Source: Candidatus Methanophagales archaeon
GTDB lineage: Archaea; Halobacteriota; Syntropharchaeia; Alkanophagales; Methanospirareceae
Direction of reading: 5' to 3'
Assembly (NCBI GenBank): GCA_025435355.1
Contig: JANJFQ010000002.1
Span: 1 to 52,764 of the forward strand
DNA: 52,764 bases
This document shows positions 2,985 to 47,361 of this stretch, in pieces (positions within the stretch are counted from its first letter, which is position 1; every line of letters starts with the position of its first letter). The position numbers and the translations under genes were made by a program. The notes under the pieces are model-generated. The model worked only from the letters and a program-made list of their open reading frames with translations. It had not been told where the DNA came from and did no database searches.

Positions 2985-4229
2985 TTATGTTCCCATTATA
3001 AAAGATTGTCGATTTGGCTGCACTCCACACTGGGAGCAGAAACCCTCGCGAAATGTTGCAATTCTTTTTGGGAGCATAATTTCTTTGAACCTACTTTCAA
3101 AGTATCTATCCGTCATACCCGCTATATAATCCCTCACTTTTTCTTCAGAAGTAGAACTAGCAAGGTATTCTTTACTAATCCAATCGAGATCCATAAAATG
3201 TTCATATATTTTACTTTTATTTTCGTTTTCAAGGTCCTCTAAAAATTTTCGACAAAGTACCTTGTACATTTCTTCAATTTTTCCGGGTTCTGCTAATATC
3301 TTCTTATTATCGTAGATATTCTCTGTGTTAAAATCTTTATATTCCTCTACGCTTTTTGAAATTTCTGTCGAATACGAAATGTGATTTTTGCTATAACTAT
3401 TTTCGACTATATCAATAATAAGTGAGTTTATTATTCCGTCATTTTTTGTTCCAATATTTTCTATACAACGCTGTGGGACTTCCGAATCGTCATTTAGGAG
3501 GCCTATTTCTATTGCATCTTGAAGATCTCTACCTAAATATGCTATTGTATCGGCGAATCTTACAACACATCCTTCTAAAGTCATAGGAACACAATCTTTT
3601 TTATTTTTACCTTTGAATTTTATATCCTCTATTTCCTTATCAAATTTTTCCCAGTTCTTATCTGTATTGGGCTTTAATGATTTATTGTGGATTTCACCAT
3701 TATGACACAAAATTCCATCAAGTACTTGAAGCGTTAAATTACAATCTTCAATCTTATCAAGAAATTGAACACTTTGAACATTATGCAAGAATCTACCGAG
3801 TCCATGTTCTTCACACAATTCAGACAGAATTTTCTCACCTGGATGACCAAAGGGAACATGACCAATATCATGTCCTATTGAAATTGCCTCAATTAAATCT
3901 TCGTTTAATTTAAGGGCCCTTCCTATAGTTCGGGCAATCTTCGAAACCAGTTGGACATGAAGAACACGATGTGTAATATGATCGTTATCCACTAAAAAAA
4001 ATACTTGAGTTTTATCAATATATCTTGAATAAGCATGTGTATGCAAAATCCGATCAGCGTCTCTTGAGTATTTAGCCCGGAAATCCTCTGTATCTTTTTT
4101 CTTCCTTCTTAATCCCTCAGCACTTTTGGAAGCAAATTTTGATAAATACTCCTTTTCCCTCGTCGCAATATAAGACTTTATTTTTTTTTCTAAATCCTCT
4201 TTTAGTTTTTTCTCGTACTTATCCTTCAT
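2985..4229 (-). CDS. dGTPase-like dNTP triphosphohydrolase (HD domain)
   Basis: 414 aa. Motifs seen: RDADRILHTHAYSRYIDKTQVF, HITHRVLHVQLVS, IGHDIGHVPFGHPGE and C-terminal DYIAGMTDRYF. All are characteristic of the Dgt/dGTPase family. Confidence 0.85.
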   Translation of the reverse strand: MKDKYEKKLKEDLEKKIKSYIATREKEYLSKFASKSAEGLRRKKKDTEDFRAKYSRDADRILHTHAYSRYIDKTQVFFLVDNDHITHRVLHVQLVSKIARTIGRALKLNEDLIEAISIGHDIGHVPFGHPGEKILSELCEEHGLGRFLHNVQSVQFLDKIEDCNLTLQVLDGILCHNGEIHNKSLKPNTDKNWEKFDKEIEDIKFKGKNKKDCVPMTLEGCVVRFADTIAYLGRDLQDAIEIGLLNDDSEVPQRCIENIGTKNDGIINSLIIDIVENSYSKNHISYSTEISKSVEEYKDFNTENIYDNKKILAEPGKIEEMYKVLCRKFLEDLENENKSKIYEHFMDLDWISKEYLASSTSEEKVRDYIAGMTDRYFESRFKEIMLPKRIATFREGFCSQCGVQPNRQSFIMGT

Positions 4230-4333
4230 CAGATTGCCTCCCTAGTGAAGGGAATTATTTTCCCCCTCCTTTGAAACCTCGTAAACCCCGTAAATTCATC
4301 CTTCGGAATACTTTTGGTGATTTGGATACTCAT
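4229..4333 (-). pseudogene. 34-codon remnant of a type IIG R-M gene N-terminus, now an upstream ORF overlapping the dGTPase start
   Basis: The minus strand reads MSIQITKSIPKDEFTGFTRFQRRGKIIPFTREAI*. This is homologous to the start of the 1327-aa gene (MSHTNSNYSIIPKDKFTEFVEFQRAT). Its TGA overlaps the ATG of the dGTPase-like gene (TGATG). Confidence 0.6.
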
Positions 4334-4815
4334 ATTAATTTTGATATACAAAGTATGGATAAAAACCTTCTGATAAATCGAATTTTTTAATCAAAGGTTT
4401 CCAATTTTGTTAAGATATATTTGCTAATTTATTAACGAATATTTTAAAAAATTTTAAAAGGTACTAATTCACAAAATACCTTCGCTTTCCGCAACAGCCT
4501 TTAAAAGTAGCTAACCAAATGCGAAGATTTCAGATATGTGACGAGGGAAAGAACTGATATAAGCATGACACACTGGCTTTAACATGCCAGAAAGAGTCAC
4601 TGGGATGAATTACATGATTATTATACGCCACCTTCCCGCAGCAACCTTACCAGGCACAGTTCCAATTAACGAGGTTGTAAAGTTATCGTGTGTTCTCACT
4701 TGAAAAATAGTTACCCCATTTCGCGAAATAGCCATTTATGGTACAAGCACAGAATTGCGTGGCATCCCAGCCCTTTTATTTCGAGTTTACATCTGATCGC
4801 TTTTTACTGTAAACT
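4268..4815. repeat. R1 direct repeat, copy 1 (~550 bp; partner 20030-20597)
   Basis: Aligned by eye to 20030-20597 in the same orientation. There are long identical runs, including a 65-nt identical block (4607-4671 = 20383-20447). The homology is cut at 4815 by an IS fragment. Confidence 0.9.
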
Positions 4816-5037
4816 CTGGAAAGGCTCAATACATCGTGAACCATTTCATTTAACAAATAAAGGCTCAATACATCGCGAACTCTTTTTGATATAGACTCCA
4901 TAAAAGCATCCTTAGTGATGCTTTATGGATTTTGAGGAACAAGAGCGGATTGATTCCGTAAATAGGTATATTAGGGGCGATAAACCGGCGAATATTTGTA
5001 GAGACGTGGGTAGGTCAAAAACATGGCTCTTTACATG
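4816..5037 (+). mobile_element. Truncated copy (terminal ~220 bp) of the IS found intact at 14469-15912
   Basis: Contains the terminal repeat ctggaaaggctcaatacatcg, a second subterminal aaaggctcaatacatcgcgaac, and the first ~37 codons of the transposase (MDFEEQERIDSVNRYIRGDKPANICRDVGRSKTWLFT). Similarity ends near 5037. Orientation is opposite to the full copy. Confidence 0.85.
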
Positions 5038-6321: not shown

Positions 6322-7806
6322 TTAACCACAAACAGACACTGGCTTGCAACTACCCTTGTTACAAGAAATCTTTCCATGAAGTGTAGTGCATCTGATCCCA
6401 CAAACAATAAAACAACATCGTTTTCTTTTTTCTAAAGGTTCGCTTAACCAGTTCATTTCACTTTCTATGCCTGTTTTTCTAATATTGGCAGGATAATAGT
6501 TGTCTATTTCTTTTAAAACGTCACCTAACTGATATTTCCATACACCACAATGTTTACTTTTTGGTTCTAACAGATTACGGTAAACACAATTTCCATAACA
6601 AAGCGGTAATACCTCACATTCTCGGCACTCTGGATCATCTAGTGGAGAATAGCCAATCCATTTGTTTAATGTGCCAGAAGTCATAACACCGTCTCTTAAA
6701 TTTCCAACCCTCTCCTTTTCATCTCCAATCGGCACCCAGCATTTTTGTAAGTTACCATTAGGTTCTACAACAAAGGCGTTATCCATTTCAGCGGCGCATA
6801 ATCCAAAAGTAGTGGCTGGGACCAAATAAGGTTCGGGATCCCATCCCTTTTGAATGGCCGTTTTATTAAAATTAACATAAGTTTCAGCAAAGAAATCATC
6901 TACTATACATTTTGTTGTAATATCATTACATGAGCGTATAGCCCCTATAGGTTCAATTTGACCGACATAAACCTGTACTTTATTTTTCAATCCTTCAGAT
7001 GCCAGATAATCTAAAAGCTTATCCAAACATGGCACATTATCTTTGTTAAGGTTTATTCTAAGGTATATCGATGGCAAAATGTCTAGTGCATTCTTAATGT
7101 TTTCGATAATGGTATCGAATGTACCCTTGTTGCCTTTGCTATATCTAGTTTTATTATGTATTTCCCTTGTACCATCCAGCGAAATTTGAACAAAGGTGAC
7201 GTTACTGTCTCTTAATTTCTTTGCATTTTCCTCAGTAAGCAGAACTCCATTAGTTATAATCCCCGAAGAGTATTCACAATTATGTTGAGAGCACAACTTT
7301 AAAAATCTATCGGTTAACTCAACAATGGTATCGACAGCTAATAGTGGCTCTCCTCCATACCATGACACACCAAAGTATTTAACATTCTCTAAATGTTTTT
7401 CAACAAATGTTACCAGTTCGTCCTGTACGGATTTGTCCATATGTTCCCTATTCTTCGCTTCATAACAATAAGGACAGTGTAAATTACAATCTGAAGTTGG
7501 CATAATTGTTAACCCAAAACTTGACGAATCAAACTTTCTCCTATTTACCAGAATCTCTATATTTTTTAACTCATCAAAATCATCATCTAAAATAAAACCT
7601 CCTTTCTTCATATCATCGACCGTAGTAATAAGCCTAATTACCTCTCTACTTTCTATTGTTATCTTTCCTTTGGTCAGTGAAGTTAGCGATTCGTATATCT
7701 CATAACCCGATTGGGATAATATGCCTAATGCGCCAGTAGCCGCATTAAATGCCACCCAGCTTCCATCTTCTCTTTTTTCAAAAAAGTTGAACTTAGATTT
7801 TTTCAT
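6322..7806 (-). CDS. Radical SAM / SPASM-domain enzyme (peptide-maturase-like) with a Cys-rich C-terminal extension
   Basis: Has the CxxxCxxC radical SAM motif (CNLHCPYC) and SPASM cysteines (CAAEMDNAFVVEPNGNLQKC, CRECEVLPLCYGNC, HCG). A ~55-aa tail follows, ending KRKRCCFIVCGIRCTTLHGKISCNKGSCKPVSVCG. The best start is the ATG at 7806, preceded by aggagg; the ORF track starts at a TTG at 7824. Confidence 0.85.
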   Translation of the reverse strand: MKKSKFNFFEKREDGSWVAFNAATGALGILSQSGYEIYESLTSLTKGKITIESREVIRLITTVDDMKKGGFILDDDFDELKNIEILVNRRKFDSSSFGLTIMPTSDCNLHCPYCYEAKNREHMDKSVQDELVTFVEKHLENVKYFGVSWYGGEPLLAVDTIVELTDRFLKLCSQHNCEYSSGIITNGVLLTEENAKKLRDSNVTFVQISLDGTREIHNKTRYSKGNKGTFDTIIENIKNALDILPSIYLRINLNKDNVPCLDKLLDYLASEGLKNKVQVYVGQIEPIGAIRSCNDITTKCIVDDFFAETYVNFNKTAIQKGWDPEPYLVPATTFGLCAAEMDNAFVVEPNGNLQKCWVPIGDEKERVGNLRDGVMTSGTLNKWIGYSPLDDPECRECEVLPLCYGNCVYRNLLEPKSKHCGVWKYQLGDVLKEIDNYYPANIRKTGIESEMNWLSEPLEKRKRCCFIVCGIRCTTLHGKISCNKGSCKPVSVCG

Positions 7807-7847
7807 CTTTCTCCTCCTTTTCAAAATTTGCCGAAGTCACTATACCC

Positions 7848-7994: not shown

Positions 7995-8156
7995 GAACCT
8001 GGATAAATAAGCATGGTAACACAAACCAACTGAGAGAATGAACAGCTCATTCACAGGGGTTATTTCATGTTCGCTTTTTTCGAGTGAAAGCAGTGAAAGA
8101 TAAACCATTAAACCAAAGGAGATAGCATGGCTAAAAAGAAGGCGTTAATGGTTGGG
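7995..8156. repeat. R2 repeat, copy A
   Basis: Aligned by eye to 13770-13922 (copy C), including aaaggnga tagc ATGgctaa(a/g)aagaagg(c/a)gttaatggttggg. Confidence 0.7.
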
Positions 8157-8242: not shown

Positions 8243-8356
8243 TTACGCTCCGCACACACATACTCTGACATGCTTTATCGCTTCGTTCACATCTAATCTT
8301 TTTGAAATGAGATATGTTGCTACAATCATACTACTTCTACTTCCGATGCCAATCGT
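8243..8356 (-). pseudogene. 3' remnant of a second tyrosine/dual-specificity phosphatase gene
   Basis: The minus strand reads TIGIGSRSSMIVATYLISKRLDVNEAIKHVRVCVCGA*. This parallels GGIGRNGMVTAAYLISNGFNADDAMKHVRACCA of the 9488-9880 gene. It is out of frame with, and overlapped by, the 3' end of the 336-aa ORF. Confidence 0.6.
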
Positions 8357-9336
8357 TCATTTATAAAAAATCGTATTCTGCTAATGTTAGTTAAACGTCC
8401 CAAATAACCAGTAAAAGCAGCCGTTTCATCCGCAAGAAGTGACTTTCCTAATTCAATATCTCCAAAGTACCAAGTACCTTCCGATGTCCTGCTTATTATA
8501 TTATACTCGCCAATTTTGTTCACTTTAAAACACATAGGCATAGCAAATGTCCAATCAGAAGTTAATGGACTTCTCGATCTAACTTCTTCATAGTCATTTG
8601 GGTGGATTGAATTTTGTGACGCAGGATTTGGAATGACAATGAAAGAATTTTTCTTAGGGAATTCGTTAACAAGTAACAATACGCCGTCTAAGGCTATGTT
8701 TTTCATTTTTAACCATTTTTTAATTCCTTTCGTTAGATACTCTAAGCCAAAAGAAACATCACGCATATCTAATATCACAACCTTTCTATATCCAGAGTTT
8801 CTTTCTTTTTTCAAAATTTGACTTTTTGCGTGTTTTATCCCTTCTTGTGCTTTTCTTAAGAGATTCTTATGATACGGGATTGTAGATACAAGTATCTCAC
8901 TGGCATTATTTAAGATAATATTAGAATTTTGTTGCTGAGTGTAAGGAAATTGAATGACTGTTGGGCGATCCCCATATATTACCTGAGTGAAGGTATTTTG
9001 TGTAGCGTATTTTTCGGTTAGAAAAAGAAGTGTAGAGTTCAATCTTTTAATTTCGTCAAGTTCCCATGTAAGTGTTTTAACTTCGTATATAATTTTATCC
9101 TTCACAAAAGTGTGATCGCCCTTTCCTTCGTATTTGTGGTTATTTTCAAATTTGTAGGTTCTCCCGAGTAATTCGAGCGAATCTATTTCCGAGTGTTTGG
9201 ATAATAATTTATGAGCAATCTGATTTGTTTTTAATTCACCTATTAGATTTTTTATATCTGCTCCTTTCTTCCCTAAAGAGAGCGCTTTTTTCCTTAAGTT
9301 TCTTATAAATTCCGCTTTTTCTATGATGGTTATCAT
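8326..9336 (-). CDS. Hypothetical protein, 336 aa (no recognisable motif)
   Basis: A long uninterrupted ORF in AT-rich DNA, co-directional with the ATPase and phosphatase genes. An aggaaag lies upstream of the ATG. Confidence 0.6.
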   Translation of the reverse strand: MITIIEKAEFIRNLRKKALSLGKKGADIKNLIGELKTNQIAHKLLSKHSEIDSLELLGRTYKFENNHKYEGKGDHTFVKDKIIYEVKTLTWELDEIKRLNSTLLFLTEKYATQNTFTQVIYGDRPTVIQFPYTQQQNSNIILNNASEILVSTIPYHKNLLRKAQEGIKHAKSQILKKERNSGYRKVVILDMRDVSFGLEYLTKGIKKWLKMKNIALDGVLLLVNEFPKKNSFIVIPNPASQNSIHPNDYEEVRSRSPLTSDWTFAMPMCFKVNKIGEYNIISRTSEGTWYFGDIELGKSLLADETAAFTGYLGRLTNISRIRFFINERLASEVEVV

Positions 9337-9444
9337 CTTTCCTATTTAACATTCTTGTTTTTTATATAAATATCTTGCTATCCCTATCCCCCTGCAGTAA
9401 ACCTCCAACGATAAAGGGTATGTCAAATGTATATTCACCTCAAT

Positions 9445-9880
9445 TTATCCCGGTTCCCGAACAAAAATGCTCAATAGTTCTTCTTGCTCACGAGTTTCTA
9501 GTACTCTGGGCACAACATGCTCTGACATGCTTCATCGCATCATCTGCGTTGAATCCGTTTGAAATCAGGTATGCTGCTGTGACCATACCATTTCTTCCTA
9601 TACCGCCCGAACAATGCACTAACACAGCTTTTCCATCTTCAATTTCGCTGTTTATCCATTCTACAACATCGTGCAGCTCATCTAAACTCGGCGTTCCAAA
9701 ATCTAGAATGGGTAAGTGTTTCACTTTTGCACCGAATTCAGCCCACAGTTCCGGGGCATAATCAAATTCCCAGTTTTCTACAAGTATCGCAACGGCTTTG
9801 AATGTCCTGGACAAATCCTTTATTTGCTATTCTGATGGCATCGGAGCCATTGCAAGTTTTTCTGCTATCCATGAGACCAT
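9445..9880 (-). pseudogene. Archaeal PTP/dual-specificity phosphatase gene with an in-frame TAG and a probable 3' frameshift
   Basis: Has the HCxxGxxR P-loop (HCSGGIGRNG). The ATG at 9880 gives MVSWIAEKLAMAPMPSE-TAG(9829-9827)-QIKDLSRTFKAVAILVENWEF in one frame. After HVRACCAQST the family-like tail ETREQEELLSIFVREPG* appears in another frame, ending at 9445. Confidence 0.75.
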
Positions 9881-9897
9881 TTTTTCGGATTTGTGTC

Positions 9898-11973
9898 TTA
9901 CCTCTCATAAAAAGGAACGGCATCAAATCTTATTGCATCCCTGTTACTTGAGAACTTCACATAAGCTGAGAACTTAGAGGATAGGTCATTCTTTACATTC
10001 TGCCATGTAACTTTACCGCCAAGATGCTCAGCAATGCTTTTAGCGTATTTCGGATCGGTCAGTTGCAATGACATAATTCCGCCTATGTTATTGTAAACGA
10101 CATCGGTAAAGTCCACAGGGTCTTGCGTTGCAAGGAGCATTCCAACACCATACTTCCTCGCTTCTTTAAGTAATTGCCCTGCTGATGCCTCCCTTTCGTA
10201 TTTAAGGCGATGTGCCTCGTCAATGGTGACGTATAACCTTGGCTCTCGGGATTCTCCAAGTTTATCGAGGTAATATCTCAGTTTTCGCATAAAGAACTCA
10301 CAAACCACTGATTTAAGCTTCTCATTGGGTAAAATTCCTAGATTCACAACTGTTTGACCTTTCGTAATTTTCTCAAAAGGCATCACAGTTTTAGCAGAAA
10401 ATATCCTATAGTCAAAAATAGGGTCTAATCTGGCAAATATGCCTTCAATTGAAGACCTTGTCCCGCTATCTCCTCCCTCAAATATCCTATTTAAGTTATT
10501 TTGGATATCATCAAACGTTGGCGGGACATTGTTCCAGCTATCCTCCTCCTCTTCGTTGATACTCTTGTCTTCATAGCTATGTTTGATAGCACTTCGGATG
10601 TATCCTATTTGCCTTTCACCAATATTATAAACCAAGTCAATGATGTCTGAAATCTGGTATTTCTGATCTTTTGGAGTGTTATCGCCATCAAGTTCAAGTG
10701 GATTGATTGATATTGTGCTCAAATCTAATATTTGACCAAATTCTGATTCTTTTTCTTTTGAAATATAATCGTTCCGGAAGTCAAAAATTATATATGGGAG
10801 CTTAAATTTCGCAAATTCGGAAAGAATAGCTTTTACTGTTTGTGTCTTTCCAGTTCCCGCACTTCCAACGATAACAAAACTCCAGTTAATCTCCTTTTTT
10901 GGCTCCCAAAAAATCTCTTTGTTGTTTTTATCACTACCTAAAAGTATTTTCAGATCAGAAGGAGATGGGATTGGAGGCTTAATCTCTTCCTTTACGTCAG
11001 TTATAACCTTAACGACCTCTTTTTCTTCTTCTTTGCCTTTTCCTTCAATTCTCTCTGACGAAGTTTCAAAAATGGGCTCCAACAGATTCTTTTCAAGCCA
11101 ATCTTCGTATCTACGTCTGTTTTTAATCGAAAACGGAGCTTGTGAACCCTGAAAACCCCGATACTTGCTTGTTATCCCCATTTCCGCCATTTTATTTACG
11201 GTTTCTTTAATTTTTTCCTCGTCAAGCTCAGCGCTTATCAGTTGTTCCCACAAAAAATCCCTAAACGCATCTGAGGAATAAGGATGAGCAAAATAAGAGT
11301 AAGATAATACACCATATATCCTAATTTTGTCGTGTTCTTCGGGTGTAGTTGTAAAGGCTTCTTTTGGGCAAAGTTCCATCAAAACCTCGAAAACTTCTGG
11401 AGCGATAACATAATTTTCTTCACGAAGACCCTTCGCAACATAGTGCTTTGTTCTGATACACAATCCAAATCCCTCTAGCTTCATTAATACAGAAGTCCAA
11501 GCTCTGTGGATTTTGTTGCTCTTTCTAAGGCGGTCCTTCCAGTTAAAACCAACTATGTCACCTGCATCAACTGGATAAATAAATTCTCTATACTCCTTTT
11601 TTAGATAATGCTCCTGGATAATAAAATTTAAGATCTTTTGTGGTTGTTCATTCAAAAATCTCTCTATATCTTCTTTATTTTCGTCAATTAGGTTAGTTAC
11701 CGCCAGTTCACCAATTTTTAATCCCTTTTCCGTAGTGCAATAGAGATGATTAGAGTAATATTTACCCTCCTCAATGTAGTTGTGCTTCAACAACAATGCA
11801 ATGAGTTTAGTATCAAATTTATAGCAATCCTGCTGTAATATACCATATCCATTCCCAACATTTTGCCCGATATAAATATCCCTTATGATTTCGATGCATT
11901 GAGATATCTCATCATCGTTCAAATCTTCTTCCTTCAATTCTTCTTTAAGATCTGCCAAATTGGAATCATCCAT
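9898..11973 (-). CDS. HerA/FtsK-superfamily (DUF87/AAA_10-like) P-loop ATPase with a ~340-aa uncharacterised N-terminal region
   Basis: Walker A is VIVGSAGTGKTQT and Walker B is LYVTIDEAHRL, followed by ARKYGVGMLLATQDPVDF, which is typical of HerA/VirB4-like ATPases. The N-terminal 340 aa show no motif I recognise. Confidence 0.8.
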   Translation of the reverse strand: MDDSNLADLKEELKEEDLNDDEISQCIEIIRDIYIGQNVGNGYGILQQDCYKFDTKLIALLLKHNYIEEGKYYSNHLYCTTEKGLKIGELAVTNLIDENKEDIERFLNEQPQKILNFIIQEHYLKKEYREFIYPVDAGDIVGFNWKDRLRKSNKIHRAWTSVLMKLEGFGLCIRTKHYVAKGLREENYVIAPEVFEVLMELCPKEAFTTTPEEHDKIRIYGVLSYSYFAHPYSSDAFRDFLWEQLISAELDEEKIKETVNKMAEMGITSKYRGFQGSQAPFSIKNRRRYEDWLEKNLLEPIFETSSERIEGKGKEEEKEVVKVITDVKEEIKPPIPSPSDLKILLGSDKNNKEIFWEPKKEINWSFVIVGSAGTGKTQTVKAILSEFAKFKLPYIIFDFRNDYISKEKESEFGQILDLSTISINPLELDGDNTPKDQKYQISDIIDLVYNIGERQIGYIRSAIKHSYEDKSINEEEEDSWNNVPPTFDDIQNNLNRIFEGGDSGTRSSIEGIFARLDPIFDYRIFSAKTVMPFEKITKGQTVVNLGILPNEKLKSVVCEFFMRKLRYYLDKLGESREPRLYVTIDEAHRLKYEREASAGQLLKEARKYGVGMLLATQDPVDFTDVVYNNIGGIMSLQLTDPKYAKSIAEHLGGKVTWQNVKNDLSSKFSAYVKFSSNRDAIRFDAVPFYER

Positions 11974-12525: not shown

Positions 12526-12975
12526 TCAAAATTCTAACTCAAACTCATCTTCAACTTCTTCTTTTAACGCACCCTCATGGATTGTCCGTTTGATTCTTTT
12601 CATCGTAATTCGGTTTAAGTTGTATCTCTTGCTTACATACCTTTTTTCTTTTGATTTTTCCTTGAGATAATTATAAAGCTGCAATGTAACCCAGCCATAA
12701 GCTACAATATCCATCACTTCTCTAATCCCTGTCAATAATATGGTGATATCAACACAATCCTCAGTTGAAATAGACTCTATTACTATCGGCAATCTCTTTG
12801 GTATCTTTTTATTGGGGATAATGTCCCTATCCTCCCATTGTAGTCGAAATTCTATAACTCCTCGATTAATTATAGAGAATATCCAGTTCAGATCACTACT
12901 TTTCAAAAACTTGTAGTCAATATGAATTCCGATACTATATCCAACTTGATCAATATCTCGTATCAACTCTTTCAT
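12526..12975 (-). CDS. Hypothetical protein, 149 aa
   Basis: The ORF lies immediately downstream of, and co-directional with, the membrane-protein gene. It has an acidic C-terminus and no recognisable motif. Confidence 0.45.
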   Translation of the reverse strand: MKELIRDIDQVGYSIGIHIDYKFLKSSDLNWIFSIINRGVIEFRLQWEDRDIIPNKKIPKRLPIVIESISTEDCVDITILLTGIREVMDIVAYGWVTLQLYNYLKEKSKEKRYVSKRYNLNRITMKRIKRTIHEGALKEEVEDEFELEF

Positions 12976-13118: not shown

Positions 13119-13502
13119 TCAAAGAATAGCGAATATCGCGGTATCTCCCAATATTACTGCTCTGTAAATTTCAGAAATTATCACAGCAATTATTATTCCG
13201 GTCCCAGTAAGACCAAGATAATCCTCAATGACACCATAATGAAAAATCTGTTTCCAAAAATTGCGTATAGTCTTTATTTTGGATTTTGAACTGTGCTTGG
13301 CTGCTTTATTGACTAACCATGTTTTTGTGAAAATTTTATCAAGAGAGATTAAAAGAATACCACCCAGCATTGCAACCTCAGAATAATTTTGAGAAATCAT
13401 AATTAAAACAAAAGTGAAAACTATTATCAACAACAAAATAAGAATCCGCGGACGCACATTGTTTGGGTCATGTGTATCACCCATCCCTCCTTTAATTCTC
13501 AT
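13119..13502 (-). CDS. Hypothetical small membrane protein (about 3 predicted TM helices)
   Basis: Hydrophobic stretches are ILILLLIIVFTFVLIMI, AMLGGILLISL and GTGIIIAVIISEIYRAVIL. The gene sits directly downstream of R2 copy C. Confidence 0.5.
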   Translation of the reverse strand: MRIKGGMGDTHDPNNVRPRILILLLIIVFTFVLIMISQNYSEVAMLGGILLISLDKIFTKTWLVNKAAKHSSKSKIKTIRNFWKQIFHYGVIEDYLGLTGTGIIIAVIISEIYRAVILGDTAIFAIL

Positions 13503-13685: not shown

Positions 13686-13922
13686 ATCTCATATACCACA
13701 TCTCCTTGGCTTCATCACAGCCTGTTACCAGCCAGACTGGATGTAAGGTTCAGTTCAGAAGGTTGGATTTTCACCAACTGGATAGATAGTATGAACTTTG
13801 CTCGGCATACTCATATTTGCTTTGGTTTTCAGCTTTATCGCTTTTTCAGGTGAAAGTAGGGGAGAATAAAACGTTAAATCAAAGGTGATAGCATGGCTAA
13901 GAAGAAGGAGTTAATGGTTGGG
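13686..13922. repeat. R2 repeat, copy C (longest; shares its left half with B and its right half with A)
   Basis: See copies A and B. It ends with a truncated MAKKKELMVGKLS* start. Confidence 0.7.
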
Positions 13923-13991: not shown

Positions 13992-14468
13992 TTAAATCTC
14001 CGGGTCTATACCTATGCTTTTTAGTTTACAAAAAAGTTTGGCAAGAATATCATCAATCGTTTTAATATCTTGTTTCTTAAATGAAGAGAGTTTTTTATAA
14101 TTTTCTTTCTTGTCATACAGTGATTTCTTATAATCCTGCCAAGTAAGAGGAATCGGATATCTCCCCCATATAACCGCAAAAATTGACAATCTCTTTAACA
14201 GGTCTTTCTCAGTTTTTGTGAAGCTTTCTAAAATATTAGCATCTTTGAATAATTCTATCAGATTATGTTTTTGTATTTTTCCGTTGAGTTTTCCATTATT
14301 GACATGGGTATCAGGTTCTTCATGTATAAGGATGCACTTGATTAGGTTCTCAAAGGCAAATGAATTTAGCATCATGTAGGTGTTAATATAATGGTATATT
14401 GGCAAGTCATCATTATCCTCGATTAAGAGTTTTTTTGCGGCGGATAGTAAACCCGTTGCCTTATTAAG
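13992..14468 (-). pseudogene. HEPN-like protein gene, 3' portion, interrupted by IS insertion
   Basis: Motifs are AFENLIKCILI, KIQKHNLIELF and WGRYPIP (HEPN-like helices and an RYP signature). The frame stays open upstream (LNKATGLLSAAKKLLIEDNDDL) right up to the IS boundary. Confidence 0.5.
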
Positions 14469-15912
14469 CTAGCTGGAAAGGGTCATTACATAGCTTACCG
14501 AAAAGGCTCAATACATAGGTTACTCCTATTTGTCAAGTTAGGTTCATTACATCGCGTACCATTTTAGGATTTCAGAGTATCGTCTTTAAGAGGTTTGACC
14601 TCTTCACTTAGCTCGTATTCAAATTTTTTTATCAATGCAGCAGTATCCTGGTCTTTTGCTCGGTAAAATATCCCTATCGTCTGTTTTCTCAAGCAGATAG
14701 TAGCCCAAACGTATTCGCTGATGAACTCCTCACCAACTTTAAAGGCTTCATTCAGGACATTGATCCTCCCTTCATTATCAACCTTTCTGATGAAGTGTAT
14801 CTTCCCATCAGTAAGTGGCTGTTTTCCCAAATCGATTTTTATGGTATCTTTCAGCATTTTAGCAGTTTTAAACTCTGTTAATTCTTCATTTTTCTTCTTC
14901 CATGCACTAAGAGCGTTATATTGCTCAACAAAATGCGTTGATTTAACACGCATGTCTTCCAGACTTGTGAATGTTTCTTTAGCCCAGAACTTCTCCTCAA
15001 ACCATCCATTGAAGTTCTCGATGCTCCCGTTCATCCAGGGGGTCTTAGGATTAATGAAAACCACTTCAACACCTGCGTATAAGCAGGATCTTATAAAACG
15101 GCTGAATCTACGCGGGTATTTAAAGTCCCCGATGAAGTACATCCCGTTATCGACCTGTAAATATCTAGGAATTGGATTATTACGCCAATACTGGATAAGA
15201 AAGCCGATTATATTATCCATGCTTTTGGTATCGTACTGCTCAATGTGAACGCGATTGCAGACCACATCGATGAGATTAAGGGAAGAAACGGCACCATATC
15301 CTTTAATAAATCTTGGACCAACGAAGTCCATCTGGTGCATTTCGTCGATCTGTGTAGGATTTAAAATCGTGTATCTTTTTTTGGATTTTACTCGTTTATA
15401 GCGCTCCCGCTTATTCACTTTCAGACCATGCTTCTTCACAATCCGCTTTATCGTTGATACAGAGGGTATCTCATCCTTCGAAAAACTGAGCTTCTCCATT
15501 CTATATTGAATTGCATCAGCACCTACGCCGAGATATTTTGATTCATGCTCGTTACCCTCCATTAGCGCTTTTCTGATGTTTACAATCGTGCTTTCGATCT
15601 CAGTGCCTGTTTTTCTTCCATGGTTTTTAGGTGCCTTTGACTGGGATTTGTACCACTTTTCCTCCCCAGTTTCGAACCTACTCACCCATGTAAATAGCCA
15701 TGTCTTTGACCTACCTACGTCTCTACAAATATTCGCCGGCTTATCGCCCTTAATATACCGATTTATGGCATCAATCCTCTCTTGTTCCTCAACATCCATA
15801 ACGCATCACTAAGGATGCTTTAATGGAGTCTATATCAAAAAGAGTTCGCGATGTATTGAGCCTTTATTTGTCAAATGAAATGGTTCACGATGTATTGAGC
15901 CTTTACAGCTAG
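14469..15912 (-). mobile_element. Intact IS element with an rve-type DDE transposase (IS481/IS3-like; family uncertain)
   Basis: The imperfect terminal inverted repeats are ctggaaagggtcattacat (14473-) and the reverse complement of cctttacag (-15908). Several subterminal aaagg(c/g)tca(a/t)tacat repeats occur at both ends. CTAG flanks both ends (14469-14472 and 15909-15912), a possible 4-bp target duplication. Confidence 0.85.
14564..15799 (-). CDS. Transposase, N-terminal HTH plus integrase-core (rve) DDE domain
   Basis: 411 aa. Candidate catalytic residues lie in HQMDFVGP, LQVDNGMYF and NGSIENFNGWF (a D, D, E pattern as in IS481/IS3 transposases). Confidence 0.85.
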   Translation of the reverse strand: MDVEEQERIDAINRYIKGDKPANICRDVGRSKTWLFTWVSRFETGEEKWYKSQSKAPKNHGRKTGTEIESTIVNIRKALMEGNEHESKYLGVGADAIQYRMEKLSFSKDEIPSVSTIKRIVKKHGLKVNKRERYKRVKSKKRYTILNPTQIDEMHQMDFVGPRFIKGYGAVSSLNLIDVVCNRVHIEQYDTKSMDNIIGFLIQYWRNNPIPRYLQVDNGMYFIGDFKYPRRFSRFIRSCLYAGVEVVFINPKTPWMNGSIENFNGWFEEKFWAKETFTSLEDMRVKSTHFVEQYNALSAWKKKNEELTEFKTAKMLKDTIKIDLGKQPLTDGKIHFIRKVDNEGRINVLNEAFKVGEEFISEYVWATICLRKQTIGIFYRAKDQDTAALIKKFEYELSEEVKPLKDDTLKS

Positions 15913-16117: not shown

Positions 16118-19100
16118 TTATCCAGCCGCACTCTCATCATTCCTGTTTTCGTTGCTATCTTTTGAAAGTGAAGATTCAACGATTTTAATCTCCTCATCAG
16201 TGAGTCCATAAAGCTTGTAAACGATCTGGTTAATGAGCTTATCTGTGGCTCCGATTTTGTTTCTTAGCGGAGATAGTACTACTTTACTCTTCTCAAATTC
16301 TTTCTTCAGATTGTCTCGAAATTCCCAGTTTGACACAGTGATAGATATTTTCTTCTTATTCTTCTTAAGGATTTTTAGTAGTTCATCGAATTCGAGTTCG
16401 TAATATGCTTTTAATTTTGTGCGGTTGGTCAGTTTGTCTATTTCTGTCTTTATTTCTCTTTCTAACCACTCCAAAAATCCTTTTGTCTCTTCCTTCTTCT
16501 CTTTATTCATCCCGATCATCCGTTCAGCCAAAAATGCTAAAAGATCATGGATGACATCGGATTTTTCTTTTTCAGTGATGAAGTTACCATCTTCATCTTT
16601 TGGGAGACATTCTTCAACAATTTTAAGGATTTTATCGGACTCATTGTCGCGGTATTTGGATTTTAAGGATTCAAGAATAGTGGTTCGTTCTTCGAGCGGG
16701 GTCGTAAAAGATATTCGTCTGAGAGGAAGTGCTTCAATTTCATATCCATTTACATGGTTGTTCGTACTTGTTAGTCTAAAACGGAACTCTAGTAAATTCG
16801 AATTAAGTATCGCAAGTAAGAAAAATTTCTCTTCGTCTTCGGGGATCAAATAACTAATACTGTCAAACAAATGCTTTTTAGGCGGAATAATAGTAGATAT
16901 TATTCTACGATAGTTATCTAATGCAGCATTTCTCTGGTATCCAATCCTCCAAGAATCCACATGAGCCTTCCTAGATTTATCAGATACTTCAGTATAATAC
17001 TTATCAATATTTAAATACCATTTCTCTCCTTGTTTTGGAATATTAAGCAGTTCATATCTTTGCACAATACCACCTCTAAGAATTTCGGGTCCAATCGGTT
17101 CCTTTATTAGAAACTGTTTCATTGATGTTTCATTAATCTCTCCTTGATACGAATGATATTGATCACCAATTCTTTTTACCCATGATGAGAGGAATATTCT
17201 TTCACATAATATACATTCTTCCGCATTCATTAGTGGAATTGAAAATGAGTGTGCATCAAGTGATTTAATTTTGTTTTGGTCCAATTTATAACATTTTGAC
17301 ACTTCTTTAAATAATCGGCCAGGATGTGTGGTAACAGTCACATTCCGAGTTGGTTTATCTTTTGTAACTACAACTATTGCGGTAGGCAATTTTGCCTCAA
17401 AGAATACCCTCTTATATGGGTCATCTTTTTGAGGAAAAGCCTCAATTTGCTCTATTTGAAAATTATTTAGCATCCATTTTCTAGTTCGAGTTGCTTGGTC
17501 ATCACCTAAAATCGCCATTGGGATGATAAATGATAATCTCATTCCTTCTTTTGTAAGAGCTAATCCTTTGGCAATAAAGAGGCGATAGAGGTTTAGTTTC
17601 TTGTCTTTTGCCGGATAAAATTCAACTTTGGATTTGAAAAAAAGTTTCTCTTGCTCTACAGAATATCCTAATTCTTTTTCAGCAAGAACGTCATAAGGTG
17701 GGTTCCCCACTACACAATCCCATCCCTGATTCTCTTTAACCTCGCCCTCCTCAAAGAACACCTCTGGAAACTCAAGCTCCCAGTGGAAGAAGCTCTTTTC
17801 CTTGGCTATATCGATCGCACTCTTAAACCAATATCTTTGCTTAAATTCGTCCCATTCGTCATTTGAGGAGCTGATAGATTGTAGCATCTCTCTATATTCA
17901 TCGGAAGGCACATCATTTTCAAAGTATATGCTGACGTAAACATCTGCTACTTCTTTGAATCTCTGTATCATCTTTATTATATTTTCATGTATTCTCTCCT
18001 TCTGCTTGATCCGTTCAATGGTATTCGATGGCATTTGCTCTATTTTAGCGAACTTGGATAGAACAGATTTCATGGTCTCTTTGAGTTCTCTGTCCCAGAT
18101 TGTTTGCTGCACCCGCATTCTATTTTCCTCTTTCTTTTTGCTTCTTATTTTCGCATTTGGCAAAACGCCACCCACATCATCGATTTTTGCACCTATAAGA
18201 GAGTTACCACAGCGTAAATGGTGATCCAAGAAAGCGAGTGGTTCGTCCTTTGATATGGTATGTAACCAGAGAGATACCTTGGCAAGCTCTACTGCCAGTA
18301 GATTTAGATCCACGCCGTAGATGCAACGCTCCACAACCTGTCTTTTAGCCCACGTAATTTCATCTTCTTCTCCTCCGGTATCTACTTTTCCTTGTTTTTC
18401 CAATGCTTCTACAATTTCTCTAGCCAAGAAAGAGACGGCCTCAAGTAAAAAATGACCAGATCCCATCGCAGGATCCAAAATTTTGATTGAAAGCAGTTCT
18501 TCTATGAGATTTCCACCGTTCTTACCTACATCTCTCTTCATCGCTTCAACGAGAGGTCCAAGCGTATTCTCCACGATATATTTAACAATATAGTCTGGCG
18601 TGTAATAGGATCCTGTTGCCTTTCTCTCACCCTTATCGGTAACGAGATACAAATCACCTGCGTTAACAACCTTATTCTTGTCTATCTTCTTTCCGCTCTC
18701 TTTTGCCTTCTTTACTGACTGGTAACCCTTTTTTCCTTTTTCCTTTGTAATGATAAAGTCTTCTTCCGCTATCCTAAGCTTGCATTCCAACAATCCTTCA
18801 TAGATAGAGCCGAGCTGTCGGATTCCAAGCGTTTGGTAGTCAATAAAGGCGTTATTTCTTCGTGTAAGAAGATTAATCGCCTCTGCAAGATACTTATCCC
18901 CAACCTTATTGTCTTTTAGAAATGGGTATTTATCCGGATCGAAGAGACGACCATTATATGGTGGTACAAATAGTTCATCTTTCTGTATCTTTCTTGCATT
19001 TAGAAGGTCAAAGAGGTATTCGAGATGTGCCCAATATACAGAGCTTCCTGAATGAAGACTAACCCCATTGTCGATTTTTTCAGCAATTTCTTTCTTCAAA

Positions 19101-20101
19101 AACTCTAAACTGATTGATTTATAGACCTCATTCTCAGTTGGAAGAAGGTCACGCGCTTCGGCATAGAGGATGAACAATATTCTATAAAGGAGTATCAGGG
19201 TGTTAGCATGAATTTTCTTAATGTCCTCCTCATACCAACTCAAATTATTATCTTGATACTTTAAAAAACCTTTTACAAGTAATTTTAGTGCATCATAAAC
19301 ATTTTTTTTTATATCCTCTTCCAATTCCTTTGCAAATCTTACGTTTTTCTCAAATATATCATCCAAGAAGCACTTGCCTTGACCATGGGGAACAAAAGCA
19401 TCCCTCCTGAAAAGAAGATAGAAATATTTAAAATCATTGGTATCACCATGTTCAATTAAATTTACTAAATCAATCTCGTAATAACTATCCAAATTAAAGC
19501 TTGTTTCTTTACAATACAACCTCCAAAGTCTTCCATTTGTGAGAATTCCCCATCTCACATCAGATACTCGTAAATAGATATTTATCTGTGAACTTGGGCT
19601 TGGCTTTCCAATCTCTCTCTTGTCAAGATTCGTACCCCAGGGCTTTGCCTCGCCAATTCCAATTACGCTCCTAAAGTAATCTGTCTCTTTGTCTTCTTTG
19701 ATTTCGTTTTTGTTCTCATCATTCGCAAAAAAGGCATAGTCGGGTCTACCGAAAGTCCCAGACACAGAGCGAATAGATGGTTGAACATCATATATATGCC
19801 CTAAAATTTTTAATATAGGTCTAATAAAATCTTCCTCAAGTTGCGACTCATTTAATCCACCCAACAACTTCTTTTTTTCGAGATATAACTTCTTGATCTC
19901 CTCAAAAGTTTTTCTGTCTTTATGCTCGTCTTTTTTCCAATTCGGGGCATGTATAAGGATATCTTTAAAATAATGCTGTGAGAAAAGGTTCTTAGTTTTA
20001 AAAGGAATAGCATGTGTAGCTAAAGTAGCCCTTTGAAACTCCACAAACTCCGTAAATTTATCCTTCGGAATAATAGAATAATTGCTATTTGTATGGCTCA
20101 T
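16118..20101 (-). CDS. Type IIG (MmeI/Eco57I-like) single-polypeptide restriction endonuclease / N6-adenine methyltransferase
   Basis: 1327 aa. It has an N-terminal PD-ExK nuclease signature (GRPDYAFF ... IGIGEAKPW), GSYYTPDYIV, SAM motif I ILDPAMGSGHFL, catalytic VVGNPPY, and a long C-terminal specificity/helical region. Confidence 0.85.
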   Translation of the reverse strand: MSHTNSNYSIIPKDKFTEFVEFQRATLATHAIPFKTKNLFSQHYFKDILIHAPNWKKDEHKDRKTFEEIKKLYLEKKKLLGGLNESQLEEDFIRPILKILGHIYDVQPSIRSVSGTFGRPDYAFFANDENKNEIKEDKETDYFRSVIGIGEAKPWGTNLDKREIGKPSPSSQINIYLRVSDVRWGILTNGRLWRLYCKETSFNLDSYYEIDLVNLIEHGDTNDFKYFYLLFRRDAFVPHGQGKCFLDDIFEKNVRFAKELEEDIKKNVYDALKLLVKGFLKYQDNNLSWYEEDIKKIHANTLILLYRILFILYAEARDLLPTENEVYKSISLEFLKKEIAEKIDNGVSLHSGSSVYWAHLEYLFDLLNARKIQKDELFVPPYNGRLFDPDKYPFLKDNKVGDKYLAEAINLLTRRNNAFIDYQTLGIRQLGSIYEGLLECKLRIAEEDFIITKEKGKKGYQSVKKAKESGKKIDKNKVVNAGDLYLVTDKGERKATGSYYTPDYIVKYIVENTLGPLVEAMKRDVGKNGGNLIEELLSIKILDPAMGSGHFLLEAVSFLAREIVEALEKQGKVDTGGEEDEITWAKRQVVERCIYGVDLNLLAVELAKVSLWLHTISKDEPLAFLDHHLRCGNSLIGAKIDDVGGVLPNAKIRSKKKEENRMRVQQTIWDRELKETMKSVLSKFAKIEQMPSNTIERIKQKERIHENIIKMIQRFKEVADVYVSIYFENDVPSDEYREMLQSISSSNDEWDEFKQRYWFKSAIDIAKEKSFFHWELEFPEVFFEEGEVKENQGWDCVVGNPPYDVLAEKELGYSVEQEKLFFKSKVEFYPAKDKKLNLYRLFIAKGLALTKEGMRLSFIIPMAILGDDQATRTRKWMLNNFQIEQIEAFPQKDDPYKRVFFEAKLPTAIVVVTKDKPTRNVTVTTHPGRLFKEVSKCYKLDQNKIKSLDAHSFSIPLMNAEECILCERIFLSSWVKRIGDQYHSYQGEINETSMKQFLIKEPIGPEILRGGIVQRYELLNIPKQGEKWYLNIDKYYTEVSDKSRKAHVDSWRIGYQRNAALDNYRRIISTIIPPKKHLFDSISYLIPEDEEKFFLLAILNSNLLEFRFRLTSTNNHVNGYEIEALPLRRISFTTPLEERTTILESLKSKYRDNESDKILKIVEECLPKDEDGNFITEKEKSDVIHDLLAFLAERMIGMNKEKKEETKGFLEWLEREIKTEIDKLTNRTKLKAYYELEFDELLKILKKNKKKISITVSNWEFRDNLKKEFEKSKVVLSPLRNKIGATDKLINQIVYKLYGLTDEEIKIVESSLSKDSNENRNDESAAG

Positions 20102-20597
20102 ATTAATTCCGATATCCCGAGTATGGATAAAAACCTTCTGATAAGTCGAATTTTTTAATCAAATTTTTCCAATTTTGTTAACATATACTTGTTAATTTAT
20201 TAGCGAATATTTTAAAAAAATTTTAAAAGATATTGATTTACAAAATACCTTCGCTTTTCGCAACAGCCTTTAAAAGTAGCTAACCAAATGCGAAGATTTC
20301 AGATATGTGACGAGTGAGGAGTTGAAAAACTGGTATACGCATCACACTGACTTTAACCAGCCAGAAAGAGACATTGAGCTGAGAATTACATGATTATTAT
20401 ACGCCACCTTCCCGCAGCAACCTTACCAGGCACAGTTCCAATTAACGTGGTTGTAAAGTTATCGTGTGTTCTCTCTCTCACTTGAAAAATGGGTATCCCA
20501 TTTCGCGAAATAGCTATTTATGGTACAAGCACCGAATTGCGTGGCATCCCAGCCCTTTTATTTCGAGTTTACATCGGATCGCTTTTTACTGTAAACT
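20030..20597. repeat. R1 direct repeat, copy 2 (first ~24 codons of the type IIG gene plus ~500 bp upstream)
   Basis: See copy 1. It contains the overlapping palindromes atttcgcgaaat (20500-20511) and aaatagctattt (20508-20519). Confidence 0.9.
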
Positions 20598-21616: not shown

Positions 21617-23719
21617 CTAAAGGATCAAAAAATAAATTGAAATTATCATCACAGCGACTATTGCTATTACTATTACGAACATTCGTATCTGTGGAAATGG
21701 TGGTGTAGGCGTTGGTGTTGGTGTTGGTGTTGGTGTTGGCGTAGGTGCTGACGACGTCGGCGAAGGTGTTGGAATTAGCATAGGCGTTACTTCGGACGCT
21801 GATGCTGCCGCTACTTCTGCAAATAATGCGAATACAGTGAAATGACGTATCATCGTGCTCGCCGTGTGTGTTGTCACATTAACCGTTGTTTCGAGCTCCA
21901 TCCATGTATCGTTCTCATACACCTTAATTACAAGCTCTGATTCGGTCGTTCCTTCTGGTATCTTCGCGGGATCATAGTTTATGCTAAATTCTACTGCCGG
22001 CTCAAATTTTACACCATTGGGTCTCAGGTCATATGCGGCTACCGCTCCTTCGAACGGCGGTGATAAAATGTTAATTGGGCTGGTTAATGGATTTCCTTGC
22101 GCATCCAGAACGGTTGTTCCTTTGGGAATCTTCAAGAACGCACTTTCATCACGCGAAGTTAAAGTAACAGTGTATCTTACAACGCCTTTTGAATCTATGG
22201 GAACATTAGGAACCGGACGTGCTTCGCCGCCACCACCACCGCTACTGCTGGCGGTGGCATCACTTTTTTCTTCCTTTGATGATGCTTTTTTAGTCTTCGT
22301 TGTCTGATTTACCCACGTTTCATTGACGTTTCCGGTTGTATCCGCGGTATGAGTTCCAATTTCGTAGCTTGTGTTCTCGATAAGTCCCGTGGCATTGTGA
22401 TAGGTGCCGGAGGTGTTTGTTTCCCATTCGCCGTTCATATACACCATTGTGTGATTGAAATCCGCATCTATGGGGTTTGTCCACGTCCAGTTAATCCACG
22501 TGGTGCCCGTGTCGCTCTGTACATTAGAGATGCTTCCGGGTGGTGTTTCATCAGGTGCAGCTTCCGTCTTCGTTGTCTGATTTACCCACGTGCTATTGAC
22601 GTTTCCGGTTGTATCCGCGGTACGAGTTCCAATTTCGTAGCTTGTGTTCTCGATAAGTCCAGTGGCATTGTGATAGGTGCCGGAGGTGTTTGTTTCCCAT
22701 TCGCCGTTCATACATACCATTGTGTGATTGAAATCCGCATCGGATGGATTTGTCCACGTCCAGTTAATCCACGTGGTGCCCGTATTGTTCTGTACATTAT
22801 AGATGCTTGCAGGTGGTATCGTATCAGGTGCAACTTCCGTCTTCGTTGTTTGGTTCATCCACGTGGTATTGACGTTTCCGTTTGTATCCACCGTACGCGT
22901 TCCTATCTCATAGCTCGTGTCGAGACTAAGCCCTGTGGCATTGTAATACGCATCAGAAGTGTTTGTTTGCCATGTGCCGTTCAAATACACCAGCGTGTGA
23001 CTGAAATCGTAATCTGTGGGATTAGTCCACGTCCAGTTAATCCACGTGGTGCCTGTGTTGTTCTGTAAATTATAGATGCTTGTGGGTGGTGTTTCATCAG
23101 GTGCAACTTCCGTCTTCGCTGTTTGGTTCATCCACGTGGTATTGACGTTTCCGTTTGTATCCACCGTATGCGTTCCGATTTCATAGCTCGTGTTAGCGAT
23201 AAGTCCAGTGGCATTGTAATACGCATCAGAAGTGTTTGTTTGCCATGTGCCGTTCAAATACACCATTGTGTGACTGAAATCGGCATCTGTGGGATTTGTC
23301 CACGTCCAGTTGATCCATGTTGTTCCGGTTGTGCTTGTTAAGTTAGTGATATTTGGAGGCGGTGTTGTGTCAGGCACACGAACTGTTATTTCTTTGCTCG
23401 TTGAATTTTCCGTTCTATTATCATCTCTTACTGTTAAGTTCACTGTGTAGTTTCCTACTGAAGAATAAATGTGGGTTATTGTTTCTTCTTTTTTTGCGAT
23501 GTTTCCAGCGCCAAAATTCCATTTATATTTCGTGATGTTTCCACCATCGGGATCATAAGAACCAGAAGCGTTGAAGGTTATTGTTTGATCGACAACGGGA
23601 TTTTTTGGTGAATATGTAAAGGATGCAACAGGAGGTGTATTGGCGGATGTCATTCCTACGGAGACACAAATCAACAAAAGAGCAACAACACTTAACAACG
23701 TTCCATTTTTTGTATTCAT
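21617..23719 (-). CDS. Secreted/cell-surface glycoprotein: signal peptide, PKD-like domain, four FN3-like repeats, PGF-pre-PGF-like domain, PT-rich linker and C-terminal TM anchor
   Basis: The N-terminal signal is LLSVVALLLICVSVGMTSA and the PKD-like region is FTYSPKNPVVDQTITFNASGSYDPDG. Four ~91-aa repeats are dense in N-x-S/T sequons. The C-terminus is (PT)n followed by a hydrophobic segment. Confidence 0.8.
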   Translation of the reverse strand: MNTKNGTLLSVVALLLICVSVGMTSANTPPVASFTYSPKNPVVDQTITFNASGSYDPDGGNITKYKWNFGAGNIAKKEETITHIYSSVGNYTVNLTVRDDNRTENSTSKEITVRVPDTTPPPNITNLTSTTGTTWINWTWTNPTDADFSHTMVYLNGTWQTNTSDAYYNATGLIANTSYEIGTHTVDTNGNVNTTWMNQTAKTEVAPDETPPTSIYNLQNNTGTTWINWTWTNPTDYDFSHTLVYLNGTWQTNTSDAYYNATGLSLDTSYEIGTRTVDTNGNVNTTWMNQTTKTEVAPDTIPPASIYNVQNNTGTTWINWTWTNPSDADFNHTMVCMNGEWETNTSGTYHNATGLIENTSYEIGTRTADTTGNVNSTWVNQTTKTEAAPDETPPGSISNVQSDTGTTWINWTWTNPIDADFNHTMVYMNGEWETNTSGTYHNATGLIENTSYEIGTHTADTTGNVNETWVNQTTKTKKASSKEEKSDATASSSGGGGGEARPVPNVPIDSKGVVRYTVTLTSRDESAFLKIPKGTTVLDAQGNPLTSPINILSPPFEGAVAAYDLRPNGVKFEPAVEFSINYDPAKIPEGTTESELVIKVYENDTWMELETTVNVTTHTASTMIRHFTVFALFAEVAAASASEVTPMLIPTPSPTSSAPTPTPTPTPTPTPTPPFPQIRMFVIVIAIVAVMIISIYFLIL
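22280..23375. repeat. Four tandem ~273-bp coding repeats inside the surface protein gene
   Basis: The repeated unit is TPP.SI.N.Q..TGTTWINWTWTNP.D.DF.HT.VY.NG.W.TNTS..Y.NATGL...TSYEIGT.T.DT.GNVN.TW.NQT.KTE.APD. Confidence 0.85.
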
Positions 23720-47000: not shown

Positions 47001-47264
47001 ATGAAGATGGAAAAGATATCAGCACAGAAGTTGAATGATAAAAGGATTGTGGACTCAGAGGGTAGTGAAATGGGCGTGTTGCATAACATAGTAGCAGATG
47101 CAGGGACTGGTATGCTGACAGATCTCGTGGTTAGACCTGCGGCGGATCTTGACAGAAGCAAGTTCAGAAAGGAGGACGATTACATCATTATACCGTTTGA
47201 TGCAGTGAAAGCAATAAAGGACGTCATAGTAGTGGATAGTGTAAAGATGCGAGTACGGGCGTGA
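47001..47264 (+). CDS. PRC-barrel domain protein
   Basis: 87 aa with VDSEGSEMGVLHNIVADAGTGMLTDLVVRP ... IIIPFDAVKAI, a PRC-barrel pattern. Confidence 0.55.
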   Translation: MKMEKISAQKLNDKRIVDSEGSEMGVLHNIVADAGTGMLTDLVVRPAADLDRSKFRKEDDYIIIPFDAVKAIKDVIVVDSVKMRVRA

Positions 47265-47361
47265 CGGGATTTGAACCCGTGATTTGCAGCTTTCTCCCAT
47301 TTTGATCAATCTAACAGTTTGTTAGGAGGCTGCCGCCATGTCCTAACTAGGCCACACGCCC
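47256..47361 (-). tRNA. tRNA-Arg (anticodon CCT) with a 31-nt intron at the canonical 37/38 position
   Basis: The acceptor is GGGCGTG/CACGCCC, the T-arm is ACGGG-TTCAAAT-CCCGT, and the anticodon stem GCAGC/GCTGC encloses CTCCTA[31 nt]A. The intron maps to 47292-47322. Confidence 0.8.

Follow-up and report, generated by a model that had tools for sequence, protein, structure and literature searches.

The stretch of Candidatus Methanophagales DNA analysed here (contig JANJFQ010000002.1, positions 1 to 52,764, hereafter the window; 52,764 nt) carries three co-directional genes on its minus strand, which encode a 691-aa HerA/FtsK-type ATPase, a damaged protein tyrosine phosphatase (PTP) and a 336-aa protein. 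The initial annotation of this sequence had proposed that the three form an undescribed defence cassette with the 336-aa protein as a possible effector, and had suggested structure searches for the N-terminal region of the ATPase and the 336-aa protein, together with a neighbourhood survey of ATPase homologs. Its description of the single genes was confirmed: the three open reading frames (ORFs) lie where it placed them and in one direction, the ATPase joins a HerA/FtsK-superfamily motor to an unannotated N-terminal region, the PTP gene is decaying, and the 336-aa protein has no match in Pfam, PADLOC, NCBIfam or the PDB. The cassette itself was not borne out. The three genes are independent units within a defence island that is being rearranged rapidly, probably in a methane-oxidising archaeon of the ANME-1 type (Table 1).

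Table 1. Features of the ATPase locus, in coordinates of the window
Feature	Position	Strand	Description or basis
ATPase gene, intact	9898..11973	-	691 aa; N-domain, Glu/Lys-rich charged linker and HerA/FtsK-type motor
N-domain (aa 1-304), conserved, unannotated, ~3 predicted winged helices	11062..11973	-	AlphaFold2 model, Foldseek, homologs
HerA/FtsK-type motor module (aa ~340-691), DndH/DptH C-terminal type	9901..10956	-	PADLOC, PDB
PTP pseudogene (small archaeal, Tk-PTP/SsoPTP family)	9445..9880	-	homolog comparison; three lesions
Autonomous cassette with the 336-aa ORF (8326-9336)	8341..9384	-	stretch common to homologous cassettes elsewhere
Second copy of the PTP 3' end, diverged and truncated	8246..8338	-	74-80% DNA identity to other copies; 15-nt deletion
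R2 repeat copy: start of a small plus-strand ORF (ribosome-binding site plus ~10 initial codons)	8071..8156	+	partner at 13838-13922

Pfam matches of the ATPase to DUF87, HerA_C and TrwB_AAD_bind all fell within residues 360-650. The sequences GSAGTGKT (Walker A Lys/Thr) and IDEAH (Walker B Asp/Glu), as well as Arg606 and Gln617, form invariant columns across 40 homologs, in agreement with the HerA/FtsK signature given in PMC10853773. In PADLOC, the motor matched DndH models best (1e-40, model positions 1308-1637 of 1715, and 8e-40), followed by mad8 (8e-21; positions 2-301 of 314) and then by HerA models, which aligned only partially over ~50-120 residues of the C-terminal part. The DndH-type match takes in the motor from end to end, with both Walker motifs, the Arg finger and the sensor Gln, and the best solved structure was PDB 7es4, labelled DptH (5.5e-26). 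More distant genome matches were ORFs of 1850-1890 aa that carry the motor domain C-terminally, consistent with DndH in both length and architecture. The ATPase gene is intact and both of its halves are under purifying selection, with a ratio of nonsynonymous to synonymous divergence (dN/dS) of 0.10-0.13 in the motor versus 0.27-0.33 in the N-domain.

The first ~340 aa of the protein belong to no curated family, and searches of Pfam, PADLOC and NCBIfam returned only sub-threshold noise. The N-domain is conserved and is present in at least 17 homologs. Its AlphaFold2 (AF2) model reached a predicted local distance difference test (pLDDT) score of 81 and a predicted TM-score of 0.77. A Foldseek search using this model revealed no global match, and local matches at probabilities of 0.9-0.99 to the winged-helix DNA-binding proteins AF1382, SSV1 F-93, TubR and the MarR-type ST1710. 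The N-domain is predicted to consist of about three tandem winged helices, in keeping with its secondary structure. A DndG-like winged-helix triad was considered and rejected: neither Pfam nor PADLOC gave a match to DndG, SspB or another curated family, and FokI was not among the Foldseek matches listed.

Both halves of the ATPase occur in other combinations. Four different motors of the HerA/FtsK type carry the N-domain, which is 52-68% identical among them, all matching mad8 or HerA models and all covering the mad8 model nearly in full (8e-21, 2e-21, 6e-28 and 8e-11). The motor, in turn, recurs with 60-93% identity behind N-termini of the BACON_2, TPR, CarboxypepD_reg, PEGA or an unknown type, in proteins of ANME-1, Asgard archaea and Thermodesulfobacteriota. 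When the window gene was compared with the ATPase gene on another Methanophagales contig (locus L002), synonymous divergence (dS) was 1.09 in the N-domain against 0.25 in the motor. This inequality implies recombination at the domain border, so the gene is a recombinant mosaic. At the DNA level, similarity to other loci sets in 7 nt ahead of the ATPase ATG and extends either to the stop codon of the ATPase gene or beyond it through the PTP gene.

PADLOC does not recognise the window ATPase as a system; only its motor has matches there, to the C-terminal part of DndH and to the models of Mad8 and HerA. With DndH/DptH it shares the C-terminal HerA/FtsK-class ATPase domain. DndH, however, is described in PMC10853773 as a protein of ~1700 aa and eight domains, among them a restriction nuclease, an inactive methylase and target-recognition domains ahead of the ATPase, as well as a SWI2/SNF2 C-domain, with DndF and DndG as partners, whereas the window protein has 691 aa, a winged-helix-like N-domain only and no nuclease, and its match covers ~1300-1640 of the ~1700 positions. 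PADLOC detected no dndF or dndG in the neighbouring ORFs scanned, and none was found in the contexts of the other ATPase loci. Mad8 belongs to the MADS system of Pseudomonas aeruginosa, and deletion of mad8 weakens phage defence (bioRxiv 10.1101/2023.03.30.534895). Near full-length similarity to Mad8 is common to all four N-domain-bearing motors, but Mad8 is a motor-only protein of 314 positions, and its gene belongs to an operon of eight that also encodes a methylase, a specificity subunit and a kinase. The window lacks an operon of this kind, and the methylase gene nearest the ATPase (16118-20101) lies 4 kb off, past an insertion sequence (IS) and small ORFs. The anti-phage HerA proteins (SIR2-HerA and DUF4297-HerA) and the repair HerA belong to the same ATPase superfamily, but the similarity is confined to the partial C-terminal matches. 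We found no HAS-barrel evidence and no NurA partner for the window ATPase, and neither SIR2 nor DUF4297 domains among the window neighbours or the related ATPase loci.

The 'HerA/FtsK capture' theme of Kaur et al. (NAR 2024, PMC10853773) is also shared: a constant partner architecture that recruits motors of different origin, a link to winged helix-turn-helix domains and anti-invader neighbours. The N-domain on four diverged motor types is such a case of one partner architecture joined to motors of different clades. The systems described there carry an endonuclease together with D5 helicase, Orc/Cdc6 or DndE partners, whereas the window ATPase has no nuclease; an archaeal triple-winged-helix/motor fusion without a nuclease is not among the systems in the sections of the paper considered here.

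We surveyed about 10 ATPase loci, corresponding to about 8 distinct contexts. The window genes around the ATPase encode a type I methylase (HsdM, 575-2128), a nucleoside 2-deoxyribosyltransferase-like protein (2435-2923) and an HD plus HD_assoc dGTPase-like protein (2985-4229), all three on the minus strand, as well as a radical SAM/SPASM maturase and a 1327-aa MmeI/Eco57I-type enzyme, with IS copies among them. The other ATPase loci adjoin genes for MmeI-type enzymes, for DarT together with Macro, for type I HsdR, Fic, EVE and NOV_C, for OLD-like AAA_15 with DUF3226 and for DUF499 with SNF2, as well as a Type ISP fragment. The survey suggested by the initial annotation showed defence-type neighbours and no conserved PTP or 336-aa partner. 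MmeI/Eco57I-type enzymes were also considered as conserved partners, as they occur in the window, L002 and L006, and were rejected: they are only 25-30% identical over 120-180 aa. They have only the methylase core in common, are not orthologous to each other and are treated here as independent neighbours.

The same survey bears on the possibility that the ATPase is a relic or a working part of a mobile element, that is, a DNA pump for conjugation, Ced-like import or virus packaging. The TrwB_AAD_bind match (1e-8) points in this direction, as do the best NCBIfam matches, which were CedB (1.6e-17), CedD and VirB4-type models, and one homolog carries the source name 'type IV secretion system DNA-binding domain-containing protein'. 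Moreover, IS elements and an integrase lie near the ATPase loci, and HerA-like helicases of arCOG00280, common in archaeal dark-matter islands, have been read as viral pumping ATPases (PMC4158269). However, all matches to DNA-transfer ATPase models were far under the curated cut-offs (63 bits versus 700 for CedB, 36 versus 643 for VirB4_CagE and 20 versus 521 for TraD). The predicted N-domain, a helical and beta-hairpin winged-helix array, resembles soluble DNA-binding proteins in Foldseek, whereas a Desulfurococcales relative in L022 differs in having a long hydrophobic N-terminus. No type IV secretion system, pilus, relaxase or capsid genes were found in the 8 distinct ATPase contexts, these being defence-island rather than conjugation settings, and an IMG/VR scan gave no relative. 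A mobile-element origin or role is improbable, though a live alternative.

The PTP gene starts 17 nt past the ATPase stop codon, with its ATG at 9880-9878. Comparison with the intact gene of L002 and eight other homologs placed three lesions in it. An in-frame TAG at 9827-9829 occupies codon 18, which is Asp or Glu in homologs; an extra T at ~9514-9515 (near codon 122), which three other copies lack, puts the last ~20 codons out of frame; and the active-site sequence reads HCSGGIGR-N-G where all eight aligned homologs (8/8) have GRSG, a Ser to Asn change after the P-loop Arg. The TAG may be read through as pyrrolysine, and the other two lesions would be unaffected either way. A mechanical 108-aa ORF (9488-9814) represents only the middle of the pseudogene. 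The reconstructed protein aligns end to end with the engineered ShufPTP (9e9l, 1e-31), Tk-PTP (5z59, 2e-30) and SsoPTP (2i6i, 2e-15), and it keeps the HCX5R loop (HCSGGIGR) and the upstream Asp. It is an ordinary small archaeal phosphatase of the Tk-PTP/SsoPTP family, differing from the other members in being a pseudogene here.

The ATPase is followed by a PTP gene at only three of the surveyed loci, namely the window, L002/L010 (a single Methanophagales contig, on which the PTP is intact and lies 57 nt downstream of the ATPase) and L013. A single stretch of DNA with 90.8% identity, reaching from the motor to the end of the PTP, is common to these three; because all go back to it, they represent only one event in evolution. 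None of the seven other ATPase contexts has the PTP (L001, L053, L054, L011, L003/4, L005 and L006). Conversely, orthologs with 58-65% identity to the reconstructed PTP lie between genes for a ClpP-like protease and an XPB-type helicase or after a NERD gene, and no ATPase was found in any PTP-ortholog context examined. At L007/L008, the PTP gene has a clean internal deletion (L007:803-1003) and no ATPase nearby. The ATPase-phosphatase pairing that the initial annotation had found unfamiliar is thus limited to one recombination block.

Considering that the ATPase directly precedes the PTP in three genomes, within a single conserved block, the two might form a unit in one sub-lineage, for example with the phosphatase resetting a phosphorylation switch on the motor or its target, and with the window copy decaying. 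MADS, whose Mad8 is related to the motor, also encodes a predicted kinase, so phospho-control of such motors is not far-fetched. However, the three cases amount to one event, the phosphatase is of a general type with orthologs in unrelated contexts, the ATPase is intact and under purifying selection while its PTP neighbour has three lesions, and the L007/L008 gene has been gutted with no ATPase nearby. Such a two-gene unit is unlikely, and the PTP is more simply read as a bystander than as a regulator; it became linked to one motor sub-lineage and has since turned into a pseudogene in the window. Among the orthologs, the intact PTP of L057-L059 (5001-5450 in L057) lies between genes for a ClpP-like SDH_protease and an XPB/ERCC3-type helicase and near the gene for a 1065-aa PLD-SNF2 helicase, a context that is possibly defence-related.

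The 336-aa ORF is a real gene, because it has five homologs at 79-84% identity with dN/dS of 0.26-0.38. Its family is very small: 1.84 billion proteins yielded just 11 representatives. When 13 members were searched as a profile against the PDB, only noise resulted, and an AF2 model built with 6 close homologs had a pLDDT of 42 and was unusable. A suspected PD-(D/E)xK-like 'D...ExK' motif was rejected, since it is not conserved across the family.

Three further contexts of the 336-aa gene were found, all of them without the ATPase. The gene adjoins the internally deleted PTP gene at L007/L008, with a VapB antitoxin gene further upstream, a gene for a 207-aa protein of unknown type at L055, and an Mrr-like gene on the opposite strand at L056. 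The DNA shared with L055 and L056 ends ~85-140 nt past the stop codon and, on the other side, 36-47 nt ahead of the ATG, so that it just includes a TATA-like box (window positions ~9359-9366). Because the shared upstream stretch includes the TATA-like box, the gene has its own promoter region. It is an autonomous, separately shuffled single-gene unit of about 1.05-1.2 kb. A transposon was considered and rejected, as no terminal inverted or direct repeats were found at the borders in four loci. In the window, the gene lies between the PTP pseudogene and the remnant of a PTP 3' end, which directly abuts the ORF. The same order of PTP, 336-aa gene and PTP remnant is present at L007 with a different deletion, so the arrangement is an older rearrangement that decays separately in each lineage. 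The cassette could be a stand-alone defence or toxin gene.

These results bear directly on the proposed three-gene defence system, in which the HerA-like ATPase would serve as scaffold, the PTP as regulator and the 336-aa protein as effector. The shared direction of the genes and the tight 17-nt spacing of the first two are what such a system would look like, and the 336-aa protein, being without known function, leaves room for a biochemical role. However, the three genes occur together at no other locus, an outcome that the initial annotation had itself named as refuting its proposal, the 336-aa gene travels with its own TATA-containing upstream stretch through contexts that lack the ATPase, and both partners are missing from seven ATPase contexts. 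The dead PTP between the ATPase and the 336-aa gene, with a PTP remnant after the latter, is a mark of insertion or rearrangement. We therefore regard a joint system of the three genes as very unlikely indeed, and nothing supports the 336-aa protein as an effector.

Taken together, we favour, with a probability of about 0.6, the interpretation that the ATPase is a single-gene conflict ATPase of the 'HerA/FtsK capture' type, which lies beside an independent PTP pseudogene and an independent 336-aa unit. In the mechanism that we propose, the winged-helix array would bind nucleic acid, most likely invader or unmodified DNA, and the motor would assemble as a ring and pump double-stranded DNA at the cost of ATP. 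This pumping could either feed the restriction enzymes encoded nearby or obstruct the replication or packaging of the invader, the logic proposed for DndH-like systems under 'HerA/FtsK capture' in PMC10853773. The domain composition, the intact catalytic residues, purifying selection, module swapping and the island setting were observed, whereas DNA binding, translocation and the defence role are inferred.

Several points weigh against this interpretation. The ATPase protein has no nuclease or effector domain, and none is encoded by a conserved neighbour, which leaves the defence mechanism incomplete. The winged-helix assignment relies on an AF2 model, and all Foldseek E-values were above 0.04, the probabilities cited above being local only. 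The defence-island argument is one of guilt by association, drawn from about 8 distinct contexts without statistics. Several members of the ATPase family are themselves pseudogenes: the gene is broken by a frameshift in L011 (1991-4103), and in L013 (350-1024) only fragments of both the ATPase and the PTP gene are left. Finally, a mobile-element origin has also been proposed for HerA-like ATPases in the variable islands of archaea, which were interpreted as relics (PMC4158269).

A more far-reaching version, which we hold only tentatively, is that the ATPase fusion is a self-sufficient, nuclease-free anti-invader protein and represents an undescribed single-gene type of defence in ANME-1, Asgard archaea and sulfate-reducing bacteria. 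Target choice would then lie with the exchangeable N-domain, whereas the motor, exchangeable as well, would disable the DNA mechanically, for instance by stripping, stalling or expelling invader genomes. If the ATPase is a defence protein, the 'HerA/FtsK capture' theme would reach into uncultured archaea (ANME-1 and Asgard), and a minimal combination of a DNA-binding array and a motor without a nuclease would raise the question of how a DNA pump alone protects the cell. The locus is also a worked example of why adjacency in a defence island should not be taken as an operon, as one apparent cassette resolved into three histories.

The surroundings of the three genes contain further traces of rearrangement. 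The R2 element is an 86-nt direct repeat whose two copies are 84% identical and begin an ORF with MAKKK.LMVG...; both are truncated gene starts, and the pair flanks a block composed of the 336-aa gene, the PTP, the ATPase and two small ORFs. Longer direct repeats of ~550 nt (4268-4815 and 20030-20597; 86-98% identical) flank a 15.8-kb stretch containing all three genes. The right copy overlaps the 5' end of the MmeI/Eco57I-type gene at 16118-20101; because it includes such a gene start, the left copy, upstream of the HD gene, is a remnant of the start of an MmeI/Eco57I-type gene. An IS with an rve/HTH transposase lies at 14564-15799, and the IS end at 15687-15908 has an inverted partial copy at 4816-5037 (222 nt, 94%) immediately next to the left one of the ~550-nt repeats. 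This IS end was also found at L010:1-143.

Upstream of the ATPase, three small ORFs are located on the minus strand at 12526-12975 (149 aa), 13119-13502 (127 aa) and 13992-14405 (137 aa). None of them had a Pfam match, the 149- and 137-aa ORFs also lacked PADLOC and NCBIfam matches, and the three showed no DNA homology to the other ATPase loci. The radical SAM/SPASM gene (6322-7824, minus strand) resembles peptide maturases, with rSAM_Clo7bot as the best NCBIfam match (2e-94, below the cut-off), and no obvious precursor peptide gene was identified for it. Elsewhere in the window, Rfam detected a 106-nt tRNA at 47256-47361 on the minus strand, which was not reported by ARAGORN and is probably intron-bearing. 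The gene for a 700-aa PKD-domain protein (21617-23719) contains four tandem repeats of 273 nt at 22293-23411, which are 72-91% identical.

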